Shown here one piece after another: positions 10,762 through 58,077 of a stretch of 64,000 bases of DNA. The stretch spans positions 41 to 64,040 of the forward strand of contig JAPLBF010000006.1 of the NCBI GenBank assembly GCA_026392825.1, read 5' to 3'. Position 1 is the first letter of the stretch. The number at the start of each line of letters is the position of its first letter. The notes beneath the pieces were generated by a model. The model searched no databases and was not told the origin of the DNA. It saw only the letters and a list, made by a program, of their open reading frames with translations. A program made the translations under genes and the position numbers. Origin of the DNA: Actinomycetota bacterium (lineage in GTDB: Bacteria; Actinomycetota; Actinomycetes; Nanopelagicales; Nanopelagicaceae).

Positions 10762-12732
10762 ATGAGTTCAGAAAAAATCGGCGATTCAATCGAAAATCTT
10801 TCGCAGGAGAACCGGCTCTTTCCACCGAGCCCGGAATTTGCCGCGCAAGCGAATGCAAAACCTGATTTGTATGCACACGCAGATAAAGACCGTTTAGCTT
10901 TTTGGGAAGAACAAGCGCGTGAGCTGACTTGGGATAAGACTTGGGATCAAGTTTTGGAATGGAATCCTCCATACGCCAAATGGTTTATTGGCGGCAAGAT
11001 AAATGCTTCGGTAAACGCGCTTGATCGTCACATCGCAGCTGGCCGTGGAGAACGAATCGCTTTTCACTTTGAAGGTGAACCCGGTGATACTCGCACAATT
11101 ACTTATTCGCAGATGCTCGAAGATGTATCGCAAGCAGCACACGCTTTAACTGAACTCGGAATCACCGCGGGCGATCGTGTCGCTATTTATATGCCGATGA
11201 TTCCAGAGGCCGCGGTTGCAATGTTAGCTTGTGCGCGAATCGGCGCAGTTCATTCAGTTGTCTTTGGTGGATTTTCTGCAGATGCGCTTCTATCTCGCAT
11301 CCAAGATGCCGATGCTAAGTTGGTAATTACTGCAGATGGTGGCTTCCGCAAGGGTTCAGCATTTGCGCTAAAGCCCGCGGTTGATGAAGCGTTAAAGGGT
11401 AAGCACAATGTGGAAAAAGTTCTGGTTGTAAAGCGCACGAAACAAGAAACAGTGTGGAACTCAGATCGTGATATTTGGTGGCATGAAATTGTTAACCGCC
11501 AAAGCAAGTCACACACACCTGAATTCTTTGACAGTGAGCACCCGCTCTTTATTCTTTACACTTCTGGAACAACTGCCAAGCCAAAGGGAATTTTCCACAC
11601 AACAGGCGGATATTTAACCCAAGCGGCATACACACATCGCGTGGTCTTTGATATCAAGCCTGAAACAGATATTTACTGGTGTACCGCCGATGTTGGTTGG
11701 ATTACCGGCCATTCTTACGTTGTTTATGGACCACTAATAAATGGCGCAACACAAGTTATTTATGAAGGAACTCCTGATACACCACATAAAGGCCGCCTCT
11801 TTGAAATTATCGCAAAGTACGGTGTAACTATTTTGTACACCGCGCCGACTTTGATTCGTACTTGGATGAAATGGGGAGATGAATTCCCACAGGCTCACAA
11901 TTTATCTTCGTTGCGTTTACTTGGGTCAGTTGGTGAACCAATTAATCCAGAAGCGTGGATGTGGTATCGCGAAGTAATTGGTGCAAACAATTGTCCAATC
12001 GTCGACACTTGGTGGCAGACCGAAACCGGCGCGATAATGATTTCACCACTACCTGGCGTTACCGCAACCAAACCAGGATCTGCGATGAAAGCACTTCCAG
12101 GTATCAGCGCAAAAGTTGTTGATGATCAAGGCGTTCCAGTTCCTAATGGACACGGTGGATTCTTAATTTTGGATCAACCATGGCCTTCAATGTTGCGTGG
12201 TGTTTGGGGCGAAGACGAGCGTTACAAAGAAACTTACTGGTCACGTTTTAAAGGAATTTACTTTGCTGGCGATGGCGCAAAGTTAGATGGCGATGGCGCG
12301 ACTTGGCTAATGGGACGCGTTGATGATGTTATGAACGTTTCCGGTCACCGCATTTCAACTACTGAAGTTGAGTCTGCTTTGGTTTCACACGAAGCGGTCG
12401 CTGAAGCAGCAGTTGTTGGTGCAGCAGATGAAATGACCGGCCAAGGCATTGTCGCCTTCGTTATTTTGCGCGGCGGAATACCAAATGTCGGCGGCGAAGA
12501 GTTGGTCAAAGAGCTGCGCGCTCACGTAACCAAGGAGATCGGCGCAATCGCTCGCCCGCGTCAGATTATGGTTGTGGCAGAACTTCCGAAGACGCGAAGT
12601 GGAAAAATTATGCGCCGCTTACTAAAGGATGTTGCTGAAAATCGCGCAGTCGGAGATGCGACAACACTGGCTGATCCAAATGTAATGAAGCTGATTTCAG
12701 AAGGGTTAAATTCTTCTAAAGACGAAGATTAA
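10762..12732 (+). CDS. acs: Acetyl-CoA synthetase
   Basis: 656 aa; YTSGTTAKPKG, DTWWQTETG, PKTRSGKIMRR; TAATCT -10 lies 8 nt before ATG. Confidence 0.98.
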   Translation: MSSEKIGDSIENLSQENRLFPPSPEFAAQANAKPDLYAHADKDRLAFWEEQARELTWDKTWDQVLEWNPPYAKWFIGGKINASVNALDRHIAAGRGERIAFHFEGEPGDTRTITYSQMLEDVSQAAHALTELGITAGDRVAIYMPMIPEAAVAMLACARIGAVHSVVFGGFSADALLSRIQDADAKLVITADGGFRKGSAFALKPAVDEALKGKHNVEKVLVVKRTKQETVWNSDRDIWWHEIVNRQSKSHTPEFFDSEHPLFILYTSGTTAKPKGIFHTTGGYLTQAAYTHRVVFDIKPETDIYWCTADVGWITGHSYVVYGPLINGATQVIYEGTPDTPHKGRLFEIIAKYGVTILYTAPTLIRTWMKWGDEFPQAHNLSSLRLLGSVGEPINPEAWMWYREVIGANNCPIVDTWWQTETGAIMISPLPGVTATKPGSAMKALPGISAKVVDDQGVPVPNGHGGFLILDQPWPSMLRGVWGEDERYKETYWSRFKGIYFAGDGAKLDGDGATWLMGRVDDVMNVSGHRISTTEVESALVSHEAVAEAAVVGAADEMTGQGIVAFVILRGGIPNVGGEELVKELRAHVTKEIGAIARPRQIMVVAELPKTRSGKIMRRLLKDVAENRAVGDATTLADPNVMKLISEGLNSSKDED

Positions 12733-50667: not shown

Positions 50668-51732
50668 ATGGCAAAGCTTTTCTCACGCCGCACTGCAGCA
50701 ATTGTTGCTGTAGCCGCAGCGTCAATGCTTGTGCTCTCAGCATGTTCAAACAGCGATAGCGGCAGCGACAAAGTTGCAGTTTCGCTAATTACTAAAGATC
50801 AGTCAAACCCATTCTTCGTTGCAATGATCAAGGGTGCTACTGCTAAGGCAGAGTCACTTGGCGTAGAACTAACTGTTACATCTGGAGTAGATGAATCAGA
50901 CTACGCAGGTCAGATCGCAGCGATTGAAAACGCAATTTCTGCAAAGCACGCTGGTATCTTGATCGTTCCAGTGTCAACAGAAGTCAACGCAGCAATCACT
51001 AAGGCCCGCGAAGCTGGTCTATACGTAATTGCTCTCGACACAGCACCAGATCCTGCTGACATCGTAGACATCACTTTCGCAACAGATAACCGCGAAGCTG
51101 GTCTTCTAATCGGTCAGTGGACAGCTGCAAAGCTTGCTGGCAAGAAGGCAACAATTGCACTTCTCGACATCTTCGATGACCGCATTGTGTCTGTTGACTA
51201 CATGCGCGATAACGGATTCCTTGCAGGTATGGGAATTGACGTTAAGGATCCAAACAAGATGGGTGACGAAGACAAGAAGGGTAAGTACTCAGGCGGAGAT
51301 TACGAGATCGTTGGAAACGTAGCGACAGGCGCTAACGAAGAAGGCGGCCGTACAGGTCTAGAACAACTTCTTGCTAAGAACAAGAAGATCAACGTTGTTT
51401 ACACAATCAACGAGCCAACAGCAATCGGTGCATGTGCTGCAGCAGCTGCTGCTGGTATCAAGCTCGATGTAATGGTCTCTGTTGACGGTGGCGGCGCTGG
51501 TATCGGTGCTGTTAAGTCAGGTTGCATCAACGCAACTTCACAGCAGTACCCATTGTTGATGGCTGACCTTGGTGTTCAAGCTATCTACGACATCGTGAAG
51601 AACGGTACAAAGCCATCTAAGTCAGAAGGCTTGGACTTCTTCAACACCGGCGTTAAGTTGATTACTGATGACCCACAAGATGGCGTTCCATCAGAGACAA
51701 CTGAATACGGTCTAGCAAACGCTTGGGGTTAA
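50668..51732 (+). CDS. frcB: Sugar ABC transporter solute-binding lipoprotein (FrcB-like)
   Basis: Lipobox VLSAC; LITKDQSNPFF, ALDT, FATDN, INEPTA, SVDGG, ATSQQYP, ends WG; AGGAGG RBS. Confidence 0.85.
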   Translation: MAKLFSRRTAAIVAVAAASMLVLSACSNSDSGSDKVAVSLITKDQSNPFFVAMIKGATAKAESLGVELTVTSGVDESDYAGQIAAIENAISAKHAGILIVPVSTEVNAAITKAREAGLYVIALDTAPDPADIVDITFATDNREAGLLIGQWTAAKLAGKKATIALLDIFDDRIVSVDYMRDNGFLAGMGIDVKDPNKMGDEDKKGKYSGGDYEIVGNVATGANEEGGRTGLEQLLAKNKKINVVYTINEPTAIGACAAAAAAGIKLDVMVSVDGGGAGIGAVKSGCINATSQQYPLLMADLGVQAIYDIVKNGTKPSKSEGLDFFNTGVKLITDDPQDGVPSETTEYGLANAWG

Positions 51733-51767
51733 TCCCAGCTCTTTAGTGAATAACTAAAGAAGAGTGT

Positions 51768-51805
51768 TTAAAGAGGGCGGCTGCTTCGGCAGTCGCCCTC
51801 TTTAA
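51768..51805 (+). terminator. Strong intercistronic hairpin after the SBP gene
   Basis: TTAAAGAGGGCGGCTGC-TTCG-GCAGTCGCCCTCTTTAA, 17-bp stem with UUCG loop. Confidence 0.85.
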
Positions 51806-51906
51806 CTAAAACGGCAATATGTTATAAGGTTTTAGGCAGTAAGGTTTAGTTACCAAGGAAAAACAATTTAATTGCAATTTAAATTTCGACTTTGAAAGGA
51901 TCTCAA

Positions 51907-52950
51907 GTGAGCCAAGATACGGCCGTCTACGACGCAGCGTCAGAGTTTCAAGATCGCGCCTCGATTAGCCAAAGAATGCAAGCTCTGCTCCATAAGTATC
52001 CGTGGCTGAGCTCAACAATGGTGCTAGTTGTAGCATCGATAATTTTTAGCTTCTTCAATGAAAACTTTTTAACACCATCTAACATCTCACTAATCCTTCA
52101 GCAAGTAGCGATCGTCGGTGCAGTAGCCGCCGGACAGACGCTAATTATTTTGACTGCCGGTATCGACCTTTCTTGTGGTGCGATCGCAGTCTTTTCATCA
52201 ATGACGATGGCTAAGTTAGTTCAAGGAACGCCTGGCGAAGGAGTACCGGCTGGCTGGTCGATCTGGTTGGCATTCCCAATCGGTTTGCTCGTCGGCATGC
52301 TCGGAGGCGCAATCAACGGTTTCTTGGTTACAAAAGTTAAGTTGCCGCCGTTTATCGTTACCTTGGGTACATTCAACGTATTCCTTGCACTGACTCTTAC
52401 TCTTACTAAGGGAACAGTTCCTTCAATTGAGATGGATCCATTCCTATTAACACTTGGTCATTATGTAAATCTCGGACCATTCCGAGTCACCACGGGTGTT
52501 CTCTTTATGTTCGCGATGTATATGGTCTTGGCCTTCGTCTTGCGCTACACATCTTGGGGACGCCACGTATACGCAGTTGGCGATGACATTGATGCAGCGC
52601 GCTTGGCAGGTATTTCAGTTAACCGCGTACTAATGAGCGTTTATGTTGTTGCCGGTCTTACCTTCGCACTCGCAGCCTGGATCGTTATTGGCCGCGTTAC
52701 CGTTGCTAGCCCAAATACTGGTGGCGATCTAAACCTTGATGCGATCACTGCGGTGGTCATTGGTGGAACCTCACTATTCGGTGGTCGAGGAACAATCTTC
52801 GGCTCGCTAATTGGCGCGATCATCGTGGGTGTTTTCCGTAATGGTCTAACACTTGCTGGCGTTGACTTGTACTACCAGCTCTTAGCTATCGGACTTCTTA
52901 TTATCTTCGCTGTTTCAGTTGACCAGTGGATCAGAAAGGCACGCAAATGA
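51907..52950 (+). CDS. frcC: Sugar ABC transporter permease (FrcC/RbsC-like)
   Basis: Start GTG 51907 (AAGGA RBS); ILTAGIDLS, LPPFIVTLGT, GRHVYAVG, AVVIGGTSLFGGRG. Confidence 0.88.
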   Translation: MSQDTAVYDAASEFQDRASISQRMQALLHKYPWLSSTMVLVVASIIFSFFNENFLTPSNISLILQQVAIVGAVAAGQTLIILTAGIDLSCGAIAVFSSMTMAKLVQGTPGEGVPAGWSIWLAFPIGLLVGMLGGAINGFLVTKVKLPPFIVTLGTFNVFLALTLTLTKGTVPSIEMDPFLLTLGHYVNLGPFRVTTGVLFMFAMYMVLAFVLRYTSWGRHVYAVGDDIDAARLAGISVNRVLMSVYVVAGLTFALAAWIVIGRVTVASPNTGGDLNLDAITAVVIGGTSLFGGRGTIFGSLIGAIIVGVFRNGLTLAGVDLYYQLLAIGLLIIFAVSVDQWIRKARK

Positions 52951-53741
52951 GTAAGAAACCAATTCTTCAAGCAGTTGGGCTTGCTAAGTCATATGGTCGC
53001 GTTGTTGCGCTAGATGGCTCCGACTTAGAACTGTTCCCAGGTGAAGTTCTCGCAGTAGTCGGTGATAACGGAGCTGGTAAATCAACCATGATCAAATGTT
53101 TATCTGGTGCTGAAGTACCTGATGAGGGGCAGATCATTCTTGATGGGCAAGAAGTTTCATTTAAGCGACCACAAGATGGGCGCCATGCCGGAATCGAAAC
53201 TGTGTACCAGACACTTGCTGTTGCACCGGCTCTCGATATCGCATCTAATCTCTTTCTCGGTCGTGAAATGCGTAAGAAGGGTCCACTTGGTTCCGTATTT
53301 CGCATGATTGATAGCTCTGGAATGCGCAAGGCTGCTAAAGAACATATTGCAGCCCTCGGCATCGGAACAATCCAGAACATCACACAAGCTGTTGAAACAC
53401 TCTCTGGTGGTCAGCGTCAGGCAGTTGCAGTAGCTCGCGCTGCTGCATTCGGCCAGAAGGTGATCATCCTTGATGAGCCAACTGCAGCACTTGGTGTTCG
53501 TGAATCACGTCAGGTTCTCAAGCTAATCGAATCACTTCGTGATCGCGGTATGCCGGTTATCTTGATTTCACACAACATGCCTCAGGTCTTTGAAGTTGCA
53601 GATCGCATCCAGGTACAACGCCTCGGAAAGCGCGCTGCAGTTGTCACTCCAAAGAGCCATTCAATGAACGATGTTGTTGCGATTATGACTGGTGCTATGA
53701 CAGTTGATAAGAAAGACCAAGCACTCAGTTCAGTTCGTTAA
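52947..53741 (+). CDS. frcA: Sugar ABC transporter ATPase, single NBD (FrcA-like)
   Basis: ATGA overlap at 52947; GDNGAGKST, LSGGQRQ, LDEPTAALG. Confidence 0.9.
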   Translation: MSKKPILQAVGLAKSYGRVVALDGSDLELFPGEVLAVVGDNGAGKSTMIKCLSGAEVPDEGQIILDGQEVSFKRPQDGRHAGIETVYQTLAVAPALDIASNLFLGREMRKKGPLGSVFRMIDSSGMRKAAKEHIAALGIGTIQNITQAVETLSGGQRQAVAVARAAAFGQKVIILDEPTAALGVRESRQVLKLIESLRDRGMPVILISHNMPQVFEVADRIQVQRLGKRAAVVTPKSHSMNDVVAIMTGAMTVDKKDQALSSVR

Positions 53742-53768: not shown

Positions 53769-55262
53769 ATGGCCACTCCGGTTCGTATTGAATCGGATGT
53801 GGTCATTGTTGGTTCTGGGATGGGCGGAGCAACAACTGCCTATGCCTTGGCAAATAAAGGCGTAAAGACCCTAGTTTTGGAACGCGGCGAACGCATGCCG
53901 CGCGAGCCAGAGAACTGGTCACCTTCAGAAATCTTTATGAAGACTCGGTACAAGCCCAATGAAAAGTGGGTGGATGAGAAAGAGAAAGAGTTTGTTCCTG
54001 GCGTTCATTACTTCGTCGGCGGAAATAGCAAAGTTTATGGCGCATCCCTTCCCCGTTTTAGCCGATTCGATTTCGGAGTAATAAAGCACCAAGAAGGAAT
54101 ATCGCCGGCTTGGCCTTTTACATACGATGATTTAGAGCCGTATTACTACGGCGCAGAAGAGTTATATCGCGTTCACGGTGATGCCCAGAATATTTATGGC
54201 AACACGCGCAGTACGCCATTTCCTTATCCTGCAATGAAACATGAGCCTTACGTTGAAGAACTCGGTAAGCGATTAACCAAGGCGGGTGTGCGACCACATT
54301 CGAATTCAATGGGCATTGACTTGGGGCCAGGTGGAAAGTGCATCCGCTGTAAAACTTGTGATGGTTTTGTTTGTAAGTTAGATGCCAAAAGTGATGCTGA
54401 AGTAAATGCTTTGAATCCTGCGATCGCAACCGGCCACGTAACTTTGATGACCTTGGTGCAAGTAAATCGAATTGTTTTAGCGGATGATGGGAAATCGGTA
54501 AGCCATCTGGAAGCAACTCGCAATGGGGAGCAGTTAGAAATTTACGGCAAGAAATATGTAATCTCTGCAGGATCAGTAAATACCGCAGCGCTCTTGCTCC
54601 GCTCTGGCGTTGCCAATTCATCTGATCAAGTCGGGCGCAACTTTATGATGCATAACAACAGCCACATTGCCGCTGTAGACATGCGCCGCAAGAACGATGT
54701 CACCTTTCAGAAAACACTCTCTTTCACGGACTGGTACTTAGATGGTGGCAAGGGTTATCCACTCGGTGCTGTTCAGTTGATCGGAAAAGTGCAAGGCATA
54801 ATGATGAAATCTTTCGCCAAGCACGTTCCGCTTCCACTGCTTAATTTGATTTCAGATCACAGCGTTGAATTTGTGGTGATGAGCGAGGATCTACCGCATC
54901 CTGATAACCGCGTAACTATCGCTAAAAACGGAGCGATTAAGATCGCCCGCAAATCTGTGGGCATGAAGACGCATATGGAACTTCTGCGCCGCGCCAAGAA
55001 AGTATTGCGCAAGGCGGGCTATCAAGGGATCTTTAGACAGCCCTTCGATATTTCAATGAACTCGCATCAGTGCGGAACAACTGTGGCCGGCAAGGATCCG
55101 CGCACCAGTGTCGTGGACGGCTACTGCCGCAGCCACGATCATCACAATCTTTACCTAATTGATGGTGGATTCTTCCCGTCATCTGCGGCGATGAATCCGG
55201 CGCTGACTATTGCAGCACAGGCGCTGCGTGTTGTTGCCGAATCCGATCTTGCGAAAGTTTAA
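53769..55262 (+). CDS. GMC-family FAD oxidoreductase
   Basis: IVGSGMGG, VGGNSKVYG, CIRCKTCDG, SHQCGT, DGGFFPSSAAMNPALTI; no obvious signal peptide. Confidence 0.9.
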   Translation: MATPVRIESDVVIVGSGMGGATTAYALANKGVKTLVLERGERMPREPENWSPSEIFMKTRYKPNEKWVDEKEKEFVPGVHYFVGGNSKVYGASLPRFSRFDFGVIKHQEGISPAWPFTYDDLEPYYYGAEELYRVHGDAQNIYGNTRSTPFPYPAMKHEPYVEELGKRLTKAGVRPHSNSMGIDLGPGGKCIRCKTCDGFVCKLDAKSDAEVNALNPAIATGHVTLMTLVQVNRIVLADDGKSVSHLEATRNGEQLEIYGKKYVISAGSVNTAALLLRSGVANSSDQVGRNFMMHNNSHIAAVDMRRKNDVTFQKTLSFTDWYLDGGKGYPLGAVQLIGKVQGIMMKSFAKHVPLPLLNLISDHSVEFVVMSEDLPHPDNRVTIAKNGAIKIARKSVGMKTHMELLRRAKKVLRKAGYQGIFRQPFDISMNSHQCGTTVAGKDPRTSVVDGYCRSHDHHNLYLIDGGFFPSSAAMNPALTIAAQALRVVAESDLAKV

Positions 55263-56122
55263 GAAAGCCCCAAGACGCGCGTAAGTTCGTTATGTAAATC
55301 TTTCGGATCTACATCAACTCCGGTCCAATACTCGATTGCGATTACCGCTTGATTAACCACCATACCTAAACCTTGCAGTGTGGTTGCTCCGCGCTTACCA
55401 GCTTCGGTTAAGAAGTATGTTTGTGGAGGATTAACGATTACATCAGCCGCCAACATTCCGGGGCGTATTGAATCGAAGTTGATATCTTGTTCTCCTTCGG
55501 TATTAACCATTCCCATTGAAGTCGAATTAATTACTACTTCGGCATCGAGTGGAATTTCATATGTCTTATTCCACTCTACAAATTCAGCGCTGGCTTTAGT
55601 TTTATCGTTTAATAAAGCAGTCAACTCTTCCCCGCGAGCGCGTGAGCGATTTACAACATAGAACTTACTCGCACCCGCTAAAGCGAGTTCAACCGCGATT
55701 GCCCGCGCAGCGCCGCCTGCGCCGAGCAGAACAATATTTTTCCCAGTCGCAGGAGTTATCTCTAAAAATGATTTAAGAAAACCTTTTCCGTCGGTATTTT
55801 CACCAACAAATTTGCCATCGCGATTTACCGCGCAATTGACTGCGCCAATTAAGGAAGCGGATTCCCCCAGGCTATCTAAATACTTGATCACTTCGACTTT
55901 GTGCGGGATGGAGCAGTTAAAACCCTTCCAATTCATCGCCTTAGCCCCTGCTACAGCCGCTGCCAGCTGGTCGGGGTTCACTTCACAGTTGACGTAGCGA
56001 AAGTGGAGGTTATTGGCCCTGTAAGAGGCTTCCACCATTGCAACCGTTGGATTTGAGTCAGAACCTTGCGAGAAGCTGCCAGTTAATTCGTGGCGGAAAG
56101 ATCCGCCTATATCCATAGTCAT
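55259..56122 (-). CDS. Shikimate dehydrogenase-family paralog (atypical substrate motif)
   Basis: GFNCSIPHK, GAVN, NTDGKG, LGAGGAARA, GLGMVVNQA; lacks the HS.SP motif. Confidence 0.87.
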   Translation of the reverse strand: MTMDIGGSFRHELTGSFSQGSDSNPTVAMVEASYRANNLHFRYVNCEVNPDQLAAAVAGAKAMNWKGFNCSIPHKVEVIKYLDSLGESASLIGAVNCAVNRDGKFVGENTDGKGFLKSFLEITPATGKNIVLLGAGGAARAIAVELALAGASKFYVVNRSRARGEELTALLNDKTKASAEFVEWNKTYEIPLDAEVVINSTSMGMVNTEGEQDINFDSIRPGMLAADVIVNPPQTYFLTEAGKRGATTLQGLGMVVNQAVIAIEYWTGVDVDPKDLHNELTRVLGLS

Positions 56123-56156
56123 GTTCAGACCTTACCGCGCAAGTTATGATCAGCCA

Positions 56157-57071
56157 ATGACCGCGACATTTTTACAACGAATCGCATCCGCGCCAATTTC
56201 TTGGGGAATCTGTGAAGTCCCAGGTTGGGGAGCGATGTTGCCAACAAAAAGAGTTTTATCTGAGATGACCAGTCTTGGTTTACCCGCAACAGAACTTGGT
56301 GCACCAGGTTTTTTCTCAGATGATTCAGCAGAACTTAAAGATCAATTAGCGGAATTTGAAATGTCGATGATCGGTGGATTCACTCCAGTTGTCTTGCACG
56401 ATAAGTCACAGGAAAAAGCCACAATCGATGCGGTGCTAAAGACTAGTAAGAAATTTCAAGAGATCGGCGCAACGCATTTAGTTTCATCTCCAGTGCAAAG
56501 TTGGGATTGGGCTAACCCAGAAGAGCTAAGTAGTGATGAAGTAACGCAATTCTTTAAAGTTCTTGCCGAAGTAGATCAAATTTGTAAAGATCACGGACTT
56601 GTTCAAGTAGTCCACCCCCATTTACAGACTGTGGTTGAAACCAAACGAGATATTGACCGAGTAGTCGAAAACTCAGATGTGATGTGGTGTTTGGATACTG
56701 GGCATATGACCATCGGTGGCCAAGACACTGTTGAGTTCGCTAAGAAATATGCCAGTCGAGTCGGCCACGTGCACTTGAAAGATGTAAATATGAAATCTGT
56801 TCCACCTGTACTTGCTCGCCAACAGAGCATTATGGAAGGTGTCCAGAAAGGTTTATTTACTCCACTGGGTCAAGGCGATGTACCAATTCTTGAAACTATT
56901 CTGGCGCTAGAAAGCGCTGGATACCAAGGCTGGTATGTAATTGAACAAGATGTTGCCATAACTGGAGAATTGCCAGGTATTGGCGAAGGTCCAATCACGG
57001 GTATGAAACAATCAGTCGATTATTTGCACAAAGTTGTTGCCCCCGCTGTAGCAAATTTAAAAACCAAGTAA
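56157..57071 (+). CDS. iolE: Myo-inosose-2 dehydratase-like TIM barrel (IolE/MocC-like)
   Basis: Start ATG 56157 (TATGAT six nt upstream); APISWGICEVPGWG, HPH, CLDTGH, HVHLKD, VIEQD. Confidence 0.75.
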   Translation: MTATFLQRIASAPISWGICEVPGWGAMLPTKRVLSEMTSLGLPATELGAPGFFSDDSAELKDQLAEFEMSMIGGFTPVVLHDKSQEKATIDAVLKTSKKFQEIGATHLVSSPVQSWDWANPEELSSDEVTQFFKVLAEVDQICKDHGLVQVVHPHLQTVVETKRDIDRVVENSDVMWCLDTGHMTIGGQDTVEFAKKYASRVGHVHLKDVNMKSVPPVLARQQSIMEGVQKGLFTPLGQGDVPILETILALESAGYQGWYVIEQDVAITGELPGIGEGPITGMKQSVDYLHKVVAPAVANLKTK

Positions 57072-57093: not shown

Positions 57094-58077
57094 GTGTCAG
57101 ATCTACGGGTAGGAATCGTCGGTGTTGGAATCATGGGCGCAGGACATGCGCGTTATCTAACTAATGATGTTGATGGAGCAATCGTTACCGCATTCTTCGA
57201 TCTTGATGCAGCGCGCATGGATGCCCTAGCAAATGAGTTATCTGCTAAATCAGGTGCCACAATTAATAAGCACTCTTCAGTCGCTGATCTAATTAACGAT
57301 CCAACTGTCGATGCAGTAATCATCTGCTCCCCCGATGGCCTACATCCAGAACACTTGGAACTCTGCGTTAAAGCAGGCAAGCCAACGCTCTGCGAAAAGC
57401 CACTTGCTCCACGATTAGAAGATGCCAAGAAGATCGCTGAAATCGTTAAAGCCTCTGGCGTTCCTGTCGCCCTCGGATTTATGCGCCGTTTCGATCCAGG
57501 CTACATTCAACTGAAGAAAGAGATTCAATCTGGCAAATATGGCGAAGTAATCCAGATTCGCGCAGTGACCCGAAATGTTTCATCACCTGGAGCAACCACT
57601 GCCGGAATGATTTTTAATTCTGCCGTGCACGAATTCGATATCGCCCGTTGGTTGCTCGAAGAAGAATTCACCACGGTATCTGTGGCATATGCCAAAAAAA
57701 CTGGCCACGCGGTTCCAGATATTCAAGATGCGGTTAGCATTATTTCCCACACTGAATCTGGCGTCTTGATGACTGTCGATAACTGTGCAAATAGCACTTA
57801 TGGATATGACGTTCGGGTTGAAGTGCTGATGCAAAATGGTTCGCTAGAACTAAATAACCTCGGTGATTTAACTATCAGCTTTGGTTTTGAACTTCCTGGT
57901 CGCAAAGCCGGACGTCTTCACGACAACTGGATTGGGCGCTTCACTGATGCATATATCGGTGAACTGCGTGCTTGGGTTGCCTCAATTACAGATGGCGTTG
58001 CAAATCCAAACTTAGCCACCGTCGATGACGGAATTGCCGCAAGTATCGCTTGCGAAAAAGGGATTGCTTCGCTTTAA
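57094..58077 (+). CDS. iolG: Inositol 2-dehydrogenase-like Gfo/Idh/MocA protein
   Basis: VGVGIMGAGH, LCEKPL, GFMRRFDPGY, NSAVHEFD, YGYDVRVEV. Confidence 0.78.
   Translation: MSDLRVGIVGVGIMGAGHARYLTNDVDGAIVTAFFDLDAARMDALANELSAKSGATINKHSSVADLINDPTVDAVIICSPDGLHPEHLELCVKAGKPTLCEKPLAPRLEDAKKIAEIVKASGVPVALGFMRRFDPGYIQLKKEIQSGKYGEVIQIRAVTRNVSSPGATTAGMIFNSAVHEFDIARWLLEEEFTTVSVAYAKKTGHAVPDIQDAVSIISHTESGVLMTVDNCANSTYGYDVRVEVLMQNGSLELNNLGDLTISFGFELPGRKAGRLHDNWIGRFTDAYIGELRAWVASITDGVANPNLATVDDGIAASIACEKGIASL

Follow-up and report, generated by a model that had tools for sequence, protein, structure and literature searches.

The window analysed here, a 64,000-nt stretch of contig JAPLBF010000006.1 from an actinobacterium of the Nanopelagicaceae (assembly GCA_026392825.1; 1.38 Mb in 38 contigs, 97% complete), carries a gene for a protein of the shikimate dehydrogenase (SDH) family which, judged from its sequence, very probably belongs to the 5-ketofructose reductase (KFR) class of that family and is referred to below as the reductase. 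Its open reading frame (ORF) matched all three SDH Pfam domains and fell below the cut-off of every NCBIfam aroE or ydiB model, the nearest being TIGR00507 (199.8 vs a cut-off of 200.2, a difference of 0.4 bits). The gene and the residues on which the comparisons rely are as follows.

55259–56122, minus strand: KFR-class SDH-family reductase (P0001), 287 amino acids, with an alternative start, Met3, at 56116
56065–56048: GSDSNP, residues 20–25
Residues 71–75: SIPHK, with Lys75 at 55900–55898
Residues 94–96: AVN, with Asn96
Residues 109–112: NTDG, with Asp111 at 55792–55790
Residues 158–163: NADP(H) motif, Asn158-Arg159-Ser160...Arg163
Residues 227–232: DVIVNP, with Val230 at 55435–55433
Residues 257–258: NQ, with Gln258
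Class signature: Asn24-Pro25-Thr26, Cys97, and Val230 in place of Tyr

A preliminary description of this DNA had taken the catalytic lysine and aspartate, the asparagine of AVN and the C-terminal glutamine to be kept, and all four were present (Lys75, Asp111, Asn96 and Gln258); its readings of the GSDSNP and DVIVNP motifs were likewise correct in both letters and position. It had also claimed that the residues binding the shikimate carboxylate are missing. In the family alignments used for pocket comparison (87 and 103 members), H-S-x-S-P of AroE aligned with S23-N24-P25-T26-V27 of the reductase; the first substrate-binding serine of AroE is replaced by Asn24 and the second by Thr26, which retains the hydroxyl, and the tyrosine that holds the shikimate carboxylate is replaced by Val230 here and by Pro, Phe or His in relatives. 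The claim is thus accurate for the tyrosine and one serine, but goes too far for the second serine, where threonine keeps the hydroxyl.

The best PDB sequence match of the reductase was 7cok, entitled '5-ketofructose reductase' (300.8 bits, E 8e-89), which aligned without gaps over residues 6–285 (280 residues), compared with 165.7 bits for the best AroE (1nvt, E 1e-47), ~122 bits for YdiB, and 82.8 and 68.4 bits for the other SDH relatives Ael1 (3pwz) and SdhL (1npy). An AlphaFold (AF2) model built on a 40-sequence alignment had a mean predicted local distance difference test (pLDDT) score of 94, and its top Foldseek matches were 7col and 7cok (template modelling (TM) score 0.94–0.97, root-mean-square deviation 1.3–1.4 Å, 51% identity), with AroE and YdiB structures next (TM ~0.88). 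Both top entries, released in 2021, are the KFR of Gluconobacter sp. CHM43, with and without NADPH. Residues 21, 72 and 108 of that enzyme correspond to Asn24, Lys75 and Asp111 of the reductase (an offset of +3 in the ungapped alignment), and the sole difference from 7cok among the pocket positions compared was at residue 230, which is Val here and Pro there. In 2021, Nguyen et al. reportedly described the Gluconobacter enzyme in J Bacteriol as a new SDH class, in which Asn21 is said to replace the SDH serine and to be needed for the binding of 5-ketofructose, with Lys72 and Asp108 reportedly acting as the catalytic dyad. Since the KFR class was described and solved in 2021, the unusual pocket noticed in the preliminary description already has an explanation. 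Its inference of a neutral substrate agrees with membership of a class that reduces neutral keto-hexoses, and its chemical reasoning was sound, but it overlooked that the class had already been described and solved. The KFR class is known, and what is new is the reductase as a member of it in an ecologically abundant lineage.

An SDH-related KFR from Tatumella morbirosei was shown to reduce 5-ketofructose alone among many carbonyl compounds and sugars, with NADPH as its sole cofactor and D-fructose as the product, whereas a typical SDH homolog from a clostridium showed no activity on this substrate (PMC7954740). The enzymes of T. morbirosei and T. citrea, which we liken to the reductase by their published description and not by sequence, are SDH-related, NADPH-dependent and specific for 5-ketofructose, which is the function proposed here; the Tatumella KFR differs in having a larger monomer (36 kDa with its tag) and in being trimeric (PMC7954740). 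With the Gluconobacter KFR (7cok/7col; EC 1.1.1.124 type), the reductase shares the Lys/Asp dyad, Asn-Pro-Thr, Cys97, the loss of Tyr and the NRS...R motif. It departs from that enzyme in having Val at position 230, in its host, a streamlined freshwater acI actinobacterium that lacks a periplasmic fructose dehydrogenase complex, and in the genes that adjoin it, which encode a putatively cytoplasmic GMC-family FAD/Fe-S enzyme and an ABC importer. The Asn-Arg-Ser...Arg motif resembles the NADP(H) motif of AroE and is predicted to bind the 2'-phosphate of the cofactor, and from its conservation as Asn158-Arg159-Ser160...Arg163 we infer that the reductase would use NADPH.

The altered pocket is shared by a large clade. 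A search of 1.84 billion cluster representatives returned 957 proteins that matched the reductase at E ≤ 1e-30, and full-length homologs split cleanly into proteins with x-N-P-T that lack the tyrosine and proteins with H-S-x-S that have it. In a FastTree tree, from which 7cok and the Tatumella sequences were absent and in which support values are local, the NPT and HSxS classes were separated with full local support; the reductase was placed in an actinobacterial subclade, within a 69-row clade that also holds P0123, the library representative most similar to it (55% identity). A scan of species-representative genomes yielded 80 loci with relatives 50–91% identical to the reductase, distributed over seven or more phyla (hosts included Actinomycetota, Planctomycetota, Verrucomicrobiota, Alpha-, Beta- and Gammaproteobacteria, Bacteroidota, Acidobacteriota, Chloroflexota and others). 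Across the resulting conservation set of 81 sequences, N24, P25, T26, N69, K75, N96, T110, D111, D227, P232, M254 and Q258 were invariant or nearly so, as was the N158-R159...R163 motif. Asn24 was found in 80 of the 81, and position 230 was Pro in 48, Val in 11 and Phe in 10, with no Tyr among the rows listed. Because N24, P25 and T26 are so strictly kept, the substituted pocket is not a product of chance. A pseudoenzyme reading was considered and rejected, since every catalytic and cofactor residue is conserved. Separately, a KFR-class match in a complete genome from another genus of the same family (G045:C1:307609-308466) contains two in-frame stops, TAG and TAA, which may point to a copy in decay or may simply fall in the flanks of the match.

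The genes that surround the reductase in the window are listed below.

50668–53741, plus strand: CUT2 ribose/fructose-type ABC importer, upstream of the GMC gene
50668–51732, plus strand: binding protein of the importer
51892–52950, plus strand: permease of the importer
52926–53741, plus strand: single-domain ATPase of the importer
53769–55262, plus strand: GMC-family FAD dehydrogenase, convergent with the reductase
56121–57071, plus strand: IolE-like TIM barrel of the xylose isomerase type, divergent from the reductase, with a likely true start at ATG 56157
57094–58077, plus strand: IolG-like Gfo/Idh/MocA dehydrogenase, the second-best IolG match of the genome

The GMC protein matched FAD-glucose dehydrogenase alpha (6a2u, 9e-37) and the large subunit of fructose dehydrogenase (7w2j, 1e-28) in the PDB. 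It resembles both over its full length and has the FAD motif, the catalytic histidine (His433) and a CxxCxxCxxxxC motif (residues 190–201, at 54336–54371) that aligned on their 3Fe-4S cysteines. It differs from them in an extra fourth cysteine, in a Ser in place of the Asn before the catalytic histidine, and in that its gene is not adjoined by one for a small (Tat) or cytochrome c subunit. The GMC protein has no signal peptide, the nearby genes include none for a small or cytochrome c subunit, and the enzyme is presumably cytoplasmic. Fructose dehydrogenase is the enzyme that produces 5-ketofructose in Gluconobacter. A TTAA palindrome at 55259–55262 provides the TAA stops of both the GMC gene and the reductase gene, and this four-base overlap leaves no room for an intergenic terminator between them.

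The importer resembles the fructose uptake system FrcBCA of Sinorhizobium meliloti. The binding protein shares 51% identity, over 92% of its length, with FrcB, its counterpart at the S. meliloti frc locus. There, RbsD/FucU and ROK genes are divergent from genes for a binding protein, a permease, a 260-aa ATPase and a P-loop kinase, and a carbohydrate kinase gene follows 2 kb further downstream. This arrangement matches the published frc layout for fructose uptake, frcS-frcR / frcB-frcC-frcA-frcK ... frk (PMC10433430). The window importer shares with FrcBCA the similarity of the binding protein and a single-domain ATPase of ~260–270 aa, but unlike the S. meliloti locus it has no frcR, frcS or frcK. 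A PDB search with the binding protein returned only distant matches of the ribose/allose type. Its match to 5ibq, which we take to be an apiose-bound binding protein from Rhizobium etli, was weak (58 bits). Apiose-type genes lie upstream of the importer in the window and have no counterparts at four loci from other genera (L008, L012, L022 and L032), from which we conclude that the importer travels with the GMC and reductase genes and not with the apiose genes.

To compare gene neighbourhoods, all ORFs of the 80 loci were searched against the genes of the window, and the neighbours were clustered and their representatives annotated. Genes for an ABC importer were found within 3.5 kb of the reductase in 29 of the 49 loci whose flanks reached 3 kb or more on each side. 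The reductase often lies within an importer operon in Planctomycetota and Verrucomicrobiota (binding protein, reductase, DUF4432, ATPase, permease), and in Leeia oryzae it comes last, after the genes for the binding protein, permease, ATPase and an RbsD/FucU-type mutarotase, in that order. At one alphaproteobacterial locus, a ROK regulator gene separates the reductase from the importer, and one locus from Cyclobacteriaceae has an added GH32 fructan hydrolase. Among the ABC operons, a DUF4432 gene adjoins the KFR-class gene at L016 (8806–10110), L023 (3277–4548) and L049 (10503–11762), and an RbsD/FucU mutarotase gene does so at L063 (4085–4546). We take DUF4432 to be an aldose-epimerase-like domain, and a literature search on it yielded nothing useful; there are hints here that the ring form of the imported sugar needs conversion before reduction.

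Within the Nanopelagicales (121 genomes), the reductase was present in 16 genomes, the GMC gene in 16 and the binding protein in 14. Twelve genomes from four genera had all three genes, always side by side, either convergent or divergent, and the GMC gene was adjacent to the reductase in 12 of the 12 genomes that had both. Among 400 genomes of the phylum from outside this order, only 2 carried the reductase. The reductase island is thus accessory in Nanopelagicales. The pairing with GMC recurred in a plasmid collection, where a GMC gene directly precedes the KFR-class gene, in the same orientation, on all 4 alphaproteobacterial replicons that carry the latter (Agrobacterium, Thioclava, Gemmobacter and Rhizobium gallicum). 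The three annotated replicons have a divergent gene for an AraC regulator, and the pair is read as an operon under AraC control. The GMC protein of Agrobacterium (L084, 5425–6999) was 43% identical to that of the window and keeps the four-Cys motif. Variants of the pocket do not sort by context, as Thr97/Ile98/His230 is common to the importer-linked protein of Leeia and the GMC-linked plasmid proteins. To our knowledge, the recurrent GMC–reductase pairing and the linkage to an importer go beyond what has been published.

Overall, we propose that the reductase acts on 5-keto-D-fructose, most likely converting it with NADPH to D-fructose, or else on a closely similar neutral keto-sugar that would likewise yield a common sugar. 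We place the probability of this substrate, which is judged from sequence likeness and gene context, at roughly 0.55; the proposal is made because the pocket is near identical to that of the Gluconobacter enzyme, because one-step operons of importer and reductase occur in many phyla, and because an FrcB-like binding protein and a GMC enzyme resembling fructose dehydrogenase are encoded next to it. The reductase would be a cytoplasmic NADPH-dependent keto-sugar reductase, in which the Lys/Asp dyad would assist the transfer of hydride from NADPH to a ring ketone, and the change of Ser-x-Ser to Asn-Pro-Thr together with the loss of Tyr would let the pocket take a neutral keto-hexose in place of the carboxylate of dehydroshikimate. 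The FrcBCA-like importer may take up the keto-sugar or a precursor of it, and the substrate of the reductase may be formed by the GMC enzyme.

Several points weigh against this proposal. An identity of 51% to a characterised KFR is no guarantee of the same substrate, we know of no evidence of 5-ketofructose as a freshwater substrate, and a GMC enzyme that oxidised D-fructose would run in a futile cycle with the reductase. A fructokinase was expected beside the module, but the PfkB genes at L022 and L008 scored as ribokinase (a window PfkB at ~37.8–38.8 kb is 38–41% identical to them); these ribokinase genes beside the homologous importer in two actinobacteria caution against a firm assignment of the ligand of the importer. 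Furthermore, iol-type genes flank the reductase in acI genomes. At L012, from Nanopelagicus, it abuts iolG-like, IolD-like, iolE-like and iolC genes, and IolG-like genes flank it at L007, L008 and L067.

One alternative is an enzyme of the same class that would reduce another neutral ring ketone, either an inosose that feeds the iolE/iolG-like genes (for example in the NADP(H)-dependent interconversion of scyllo-inosose and scyllo-inositol) or a keto-sugar made by the GMC or Gfo-type enzyme (such as a 3-keto- or 2-keto-pyranose). We regard this as a serious though less probable alternative. The reductase is divergent from iolE-like and iolG-like genes both in the window and at L003, an IolE-like gene co-occurs with the island in the genus of the window, and the neighbour of the reductase is the only IolE-like gene found in a genome that carries iolD, iolB and an iolC-like kinase elsewhere. 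The published substrate panel of the Tatumella enzyme did not include inososes (PMC7954740). Set against this, iol neighbours are confined to acI-type actinobacteria, whereas in other phyla the reductase is accompanied by an importer and by no more than a mutarotase-like gene, in keeping with a single-step conversion into a common sugar. The pocket differs from that of the 5-ketofructose enzyme at a single compared position, iolD is found in genomes of the same genus whether or not they have the island (in a sample of low-completeness genomes), and the strongest IolG match in the genome is the copy beside iolB/iolC in a separate cluster on contig C26, the copy in the window being a second paralog. 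An inosose reductase role is possible, but less likely than the reduction of 5-ketofructose. The preliminary description had favoured a cyclitol because of the position next to iolE-iolG; that argument is weak, as the partners conserved across phyla are the importer and the GMC enzyme, and a cyclitol substrate survives as a minority possibility through the iol neighbours of acI-type genomes.

It is far less probable that the reductase is a redundant or catabolic shikimate or quinate dehydrogenase, as public annotation names it. Database names call its clade shikimate dehydrogenase or aroE, and the cut-off of TIGR00507 was missed by a mere 0.4 bits, but the closest solved relative is KFR, and the marks of AroE, namely the Ser-x-Ser pair with Tyr, an equivalog-level score and a chorismate gene context, were not found. 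The SDH fold and catalytic dyad are present, and the reductase is like AroE (1nvt, 1nyt) and YdiB (1npd) in its two domains, Lys/Asp, Asn96 and Gln258; it differs from them in sequence (27–35% identity), in Asn-Pro-Thr-Val for Ser-x-Ser-Pro and in the replaced Tyr, and these replacements of the carboxylate-binding Ser and Tyr extend across the whole clade. The canonical aroE whose presence elsewhere in the genome the preliminary description had left to be checked was found on contig C37, where a second SDH-family gene with HSLSP and the Tyr lies between mltG and aroC. Its product is 27% identical to the reductase, and the gene in the window is therefore a paralog. No aroD or qui genes were found near the reductase, and its accessory distribution (16 of 121 genomes of the order, 2 of 400 others of the phylum) also speaks against a shikimate dehydrogenase.

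The KFR class is systematically mis-annotated as aroE, with the consequence that metabolic reconstructions of abundant freshwater acI bacteria, Planctomycetota and Verrucomicrobiota mis-assign these genes. The KFR-class genes at L084 (6989–7837), L086 (5998–6840) and L087 (5998–6840) are publicly annotated as 'aroE, shikimate dehydrogenase', and two of these three annotations carry the Gene Ontology term for chorismate biosynthesis. Importer operons of at least seven phyla contain a keto-sugar reductase, which suggests that bacteria do meet 5-ketofructose, or an oxidised sugar much like it, as a substrate in the environment.

The recurrent GMC–KFR pair is also a testable lead to an undescribed route of sugar oxidation and reduction. 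One speculative and rather unlikely possibility is that the pair constitutes a cytoplasmic two-enzyme redox route centred on 5-ketofructose, which in acI bacteria would be fed by the FrcB-like importer. Such a route could bring about C5 epimerisation, with the GMC enzyme oxidising L-sorbose to 5-ketofructose and the reductase converting this with NADPH to D-fructose, or it could run as a cycle between fructose and 5-ketofructose that would pass electrons from NADPH to the acceptor of the GMC enzyme or the respiratory chain.

At the divergent start of the island, the longest ORFs of the reductase and the IolE-like gene overlap (56122 and 56121; region 56114–56160). Within the genus, matches that reach back to residue 1 of the longer IolE-like ORF carry an in-frame stop, and a start at ATG 56157 gives a spacer of ~34 nt that contains TATGAT. 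This arrangement suggests that the leaders of both genes are very short or absent; a promoter scan of 55000–56500 found nothing beyond chance. At L008, from another actinobacterium, a DeoC/LacD-type aldolase gene (11121–11990) lies beside the importer–GMC–reductase module and is followed by a PfkB-type kinase; the best NCBIfam matches of the aldolase were ADH synthase-like models, with scores below their cut-offs.

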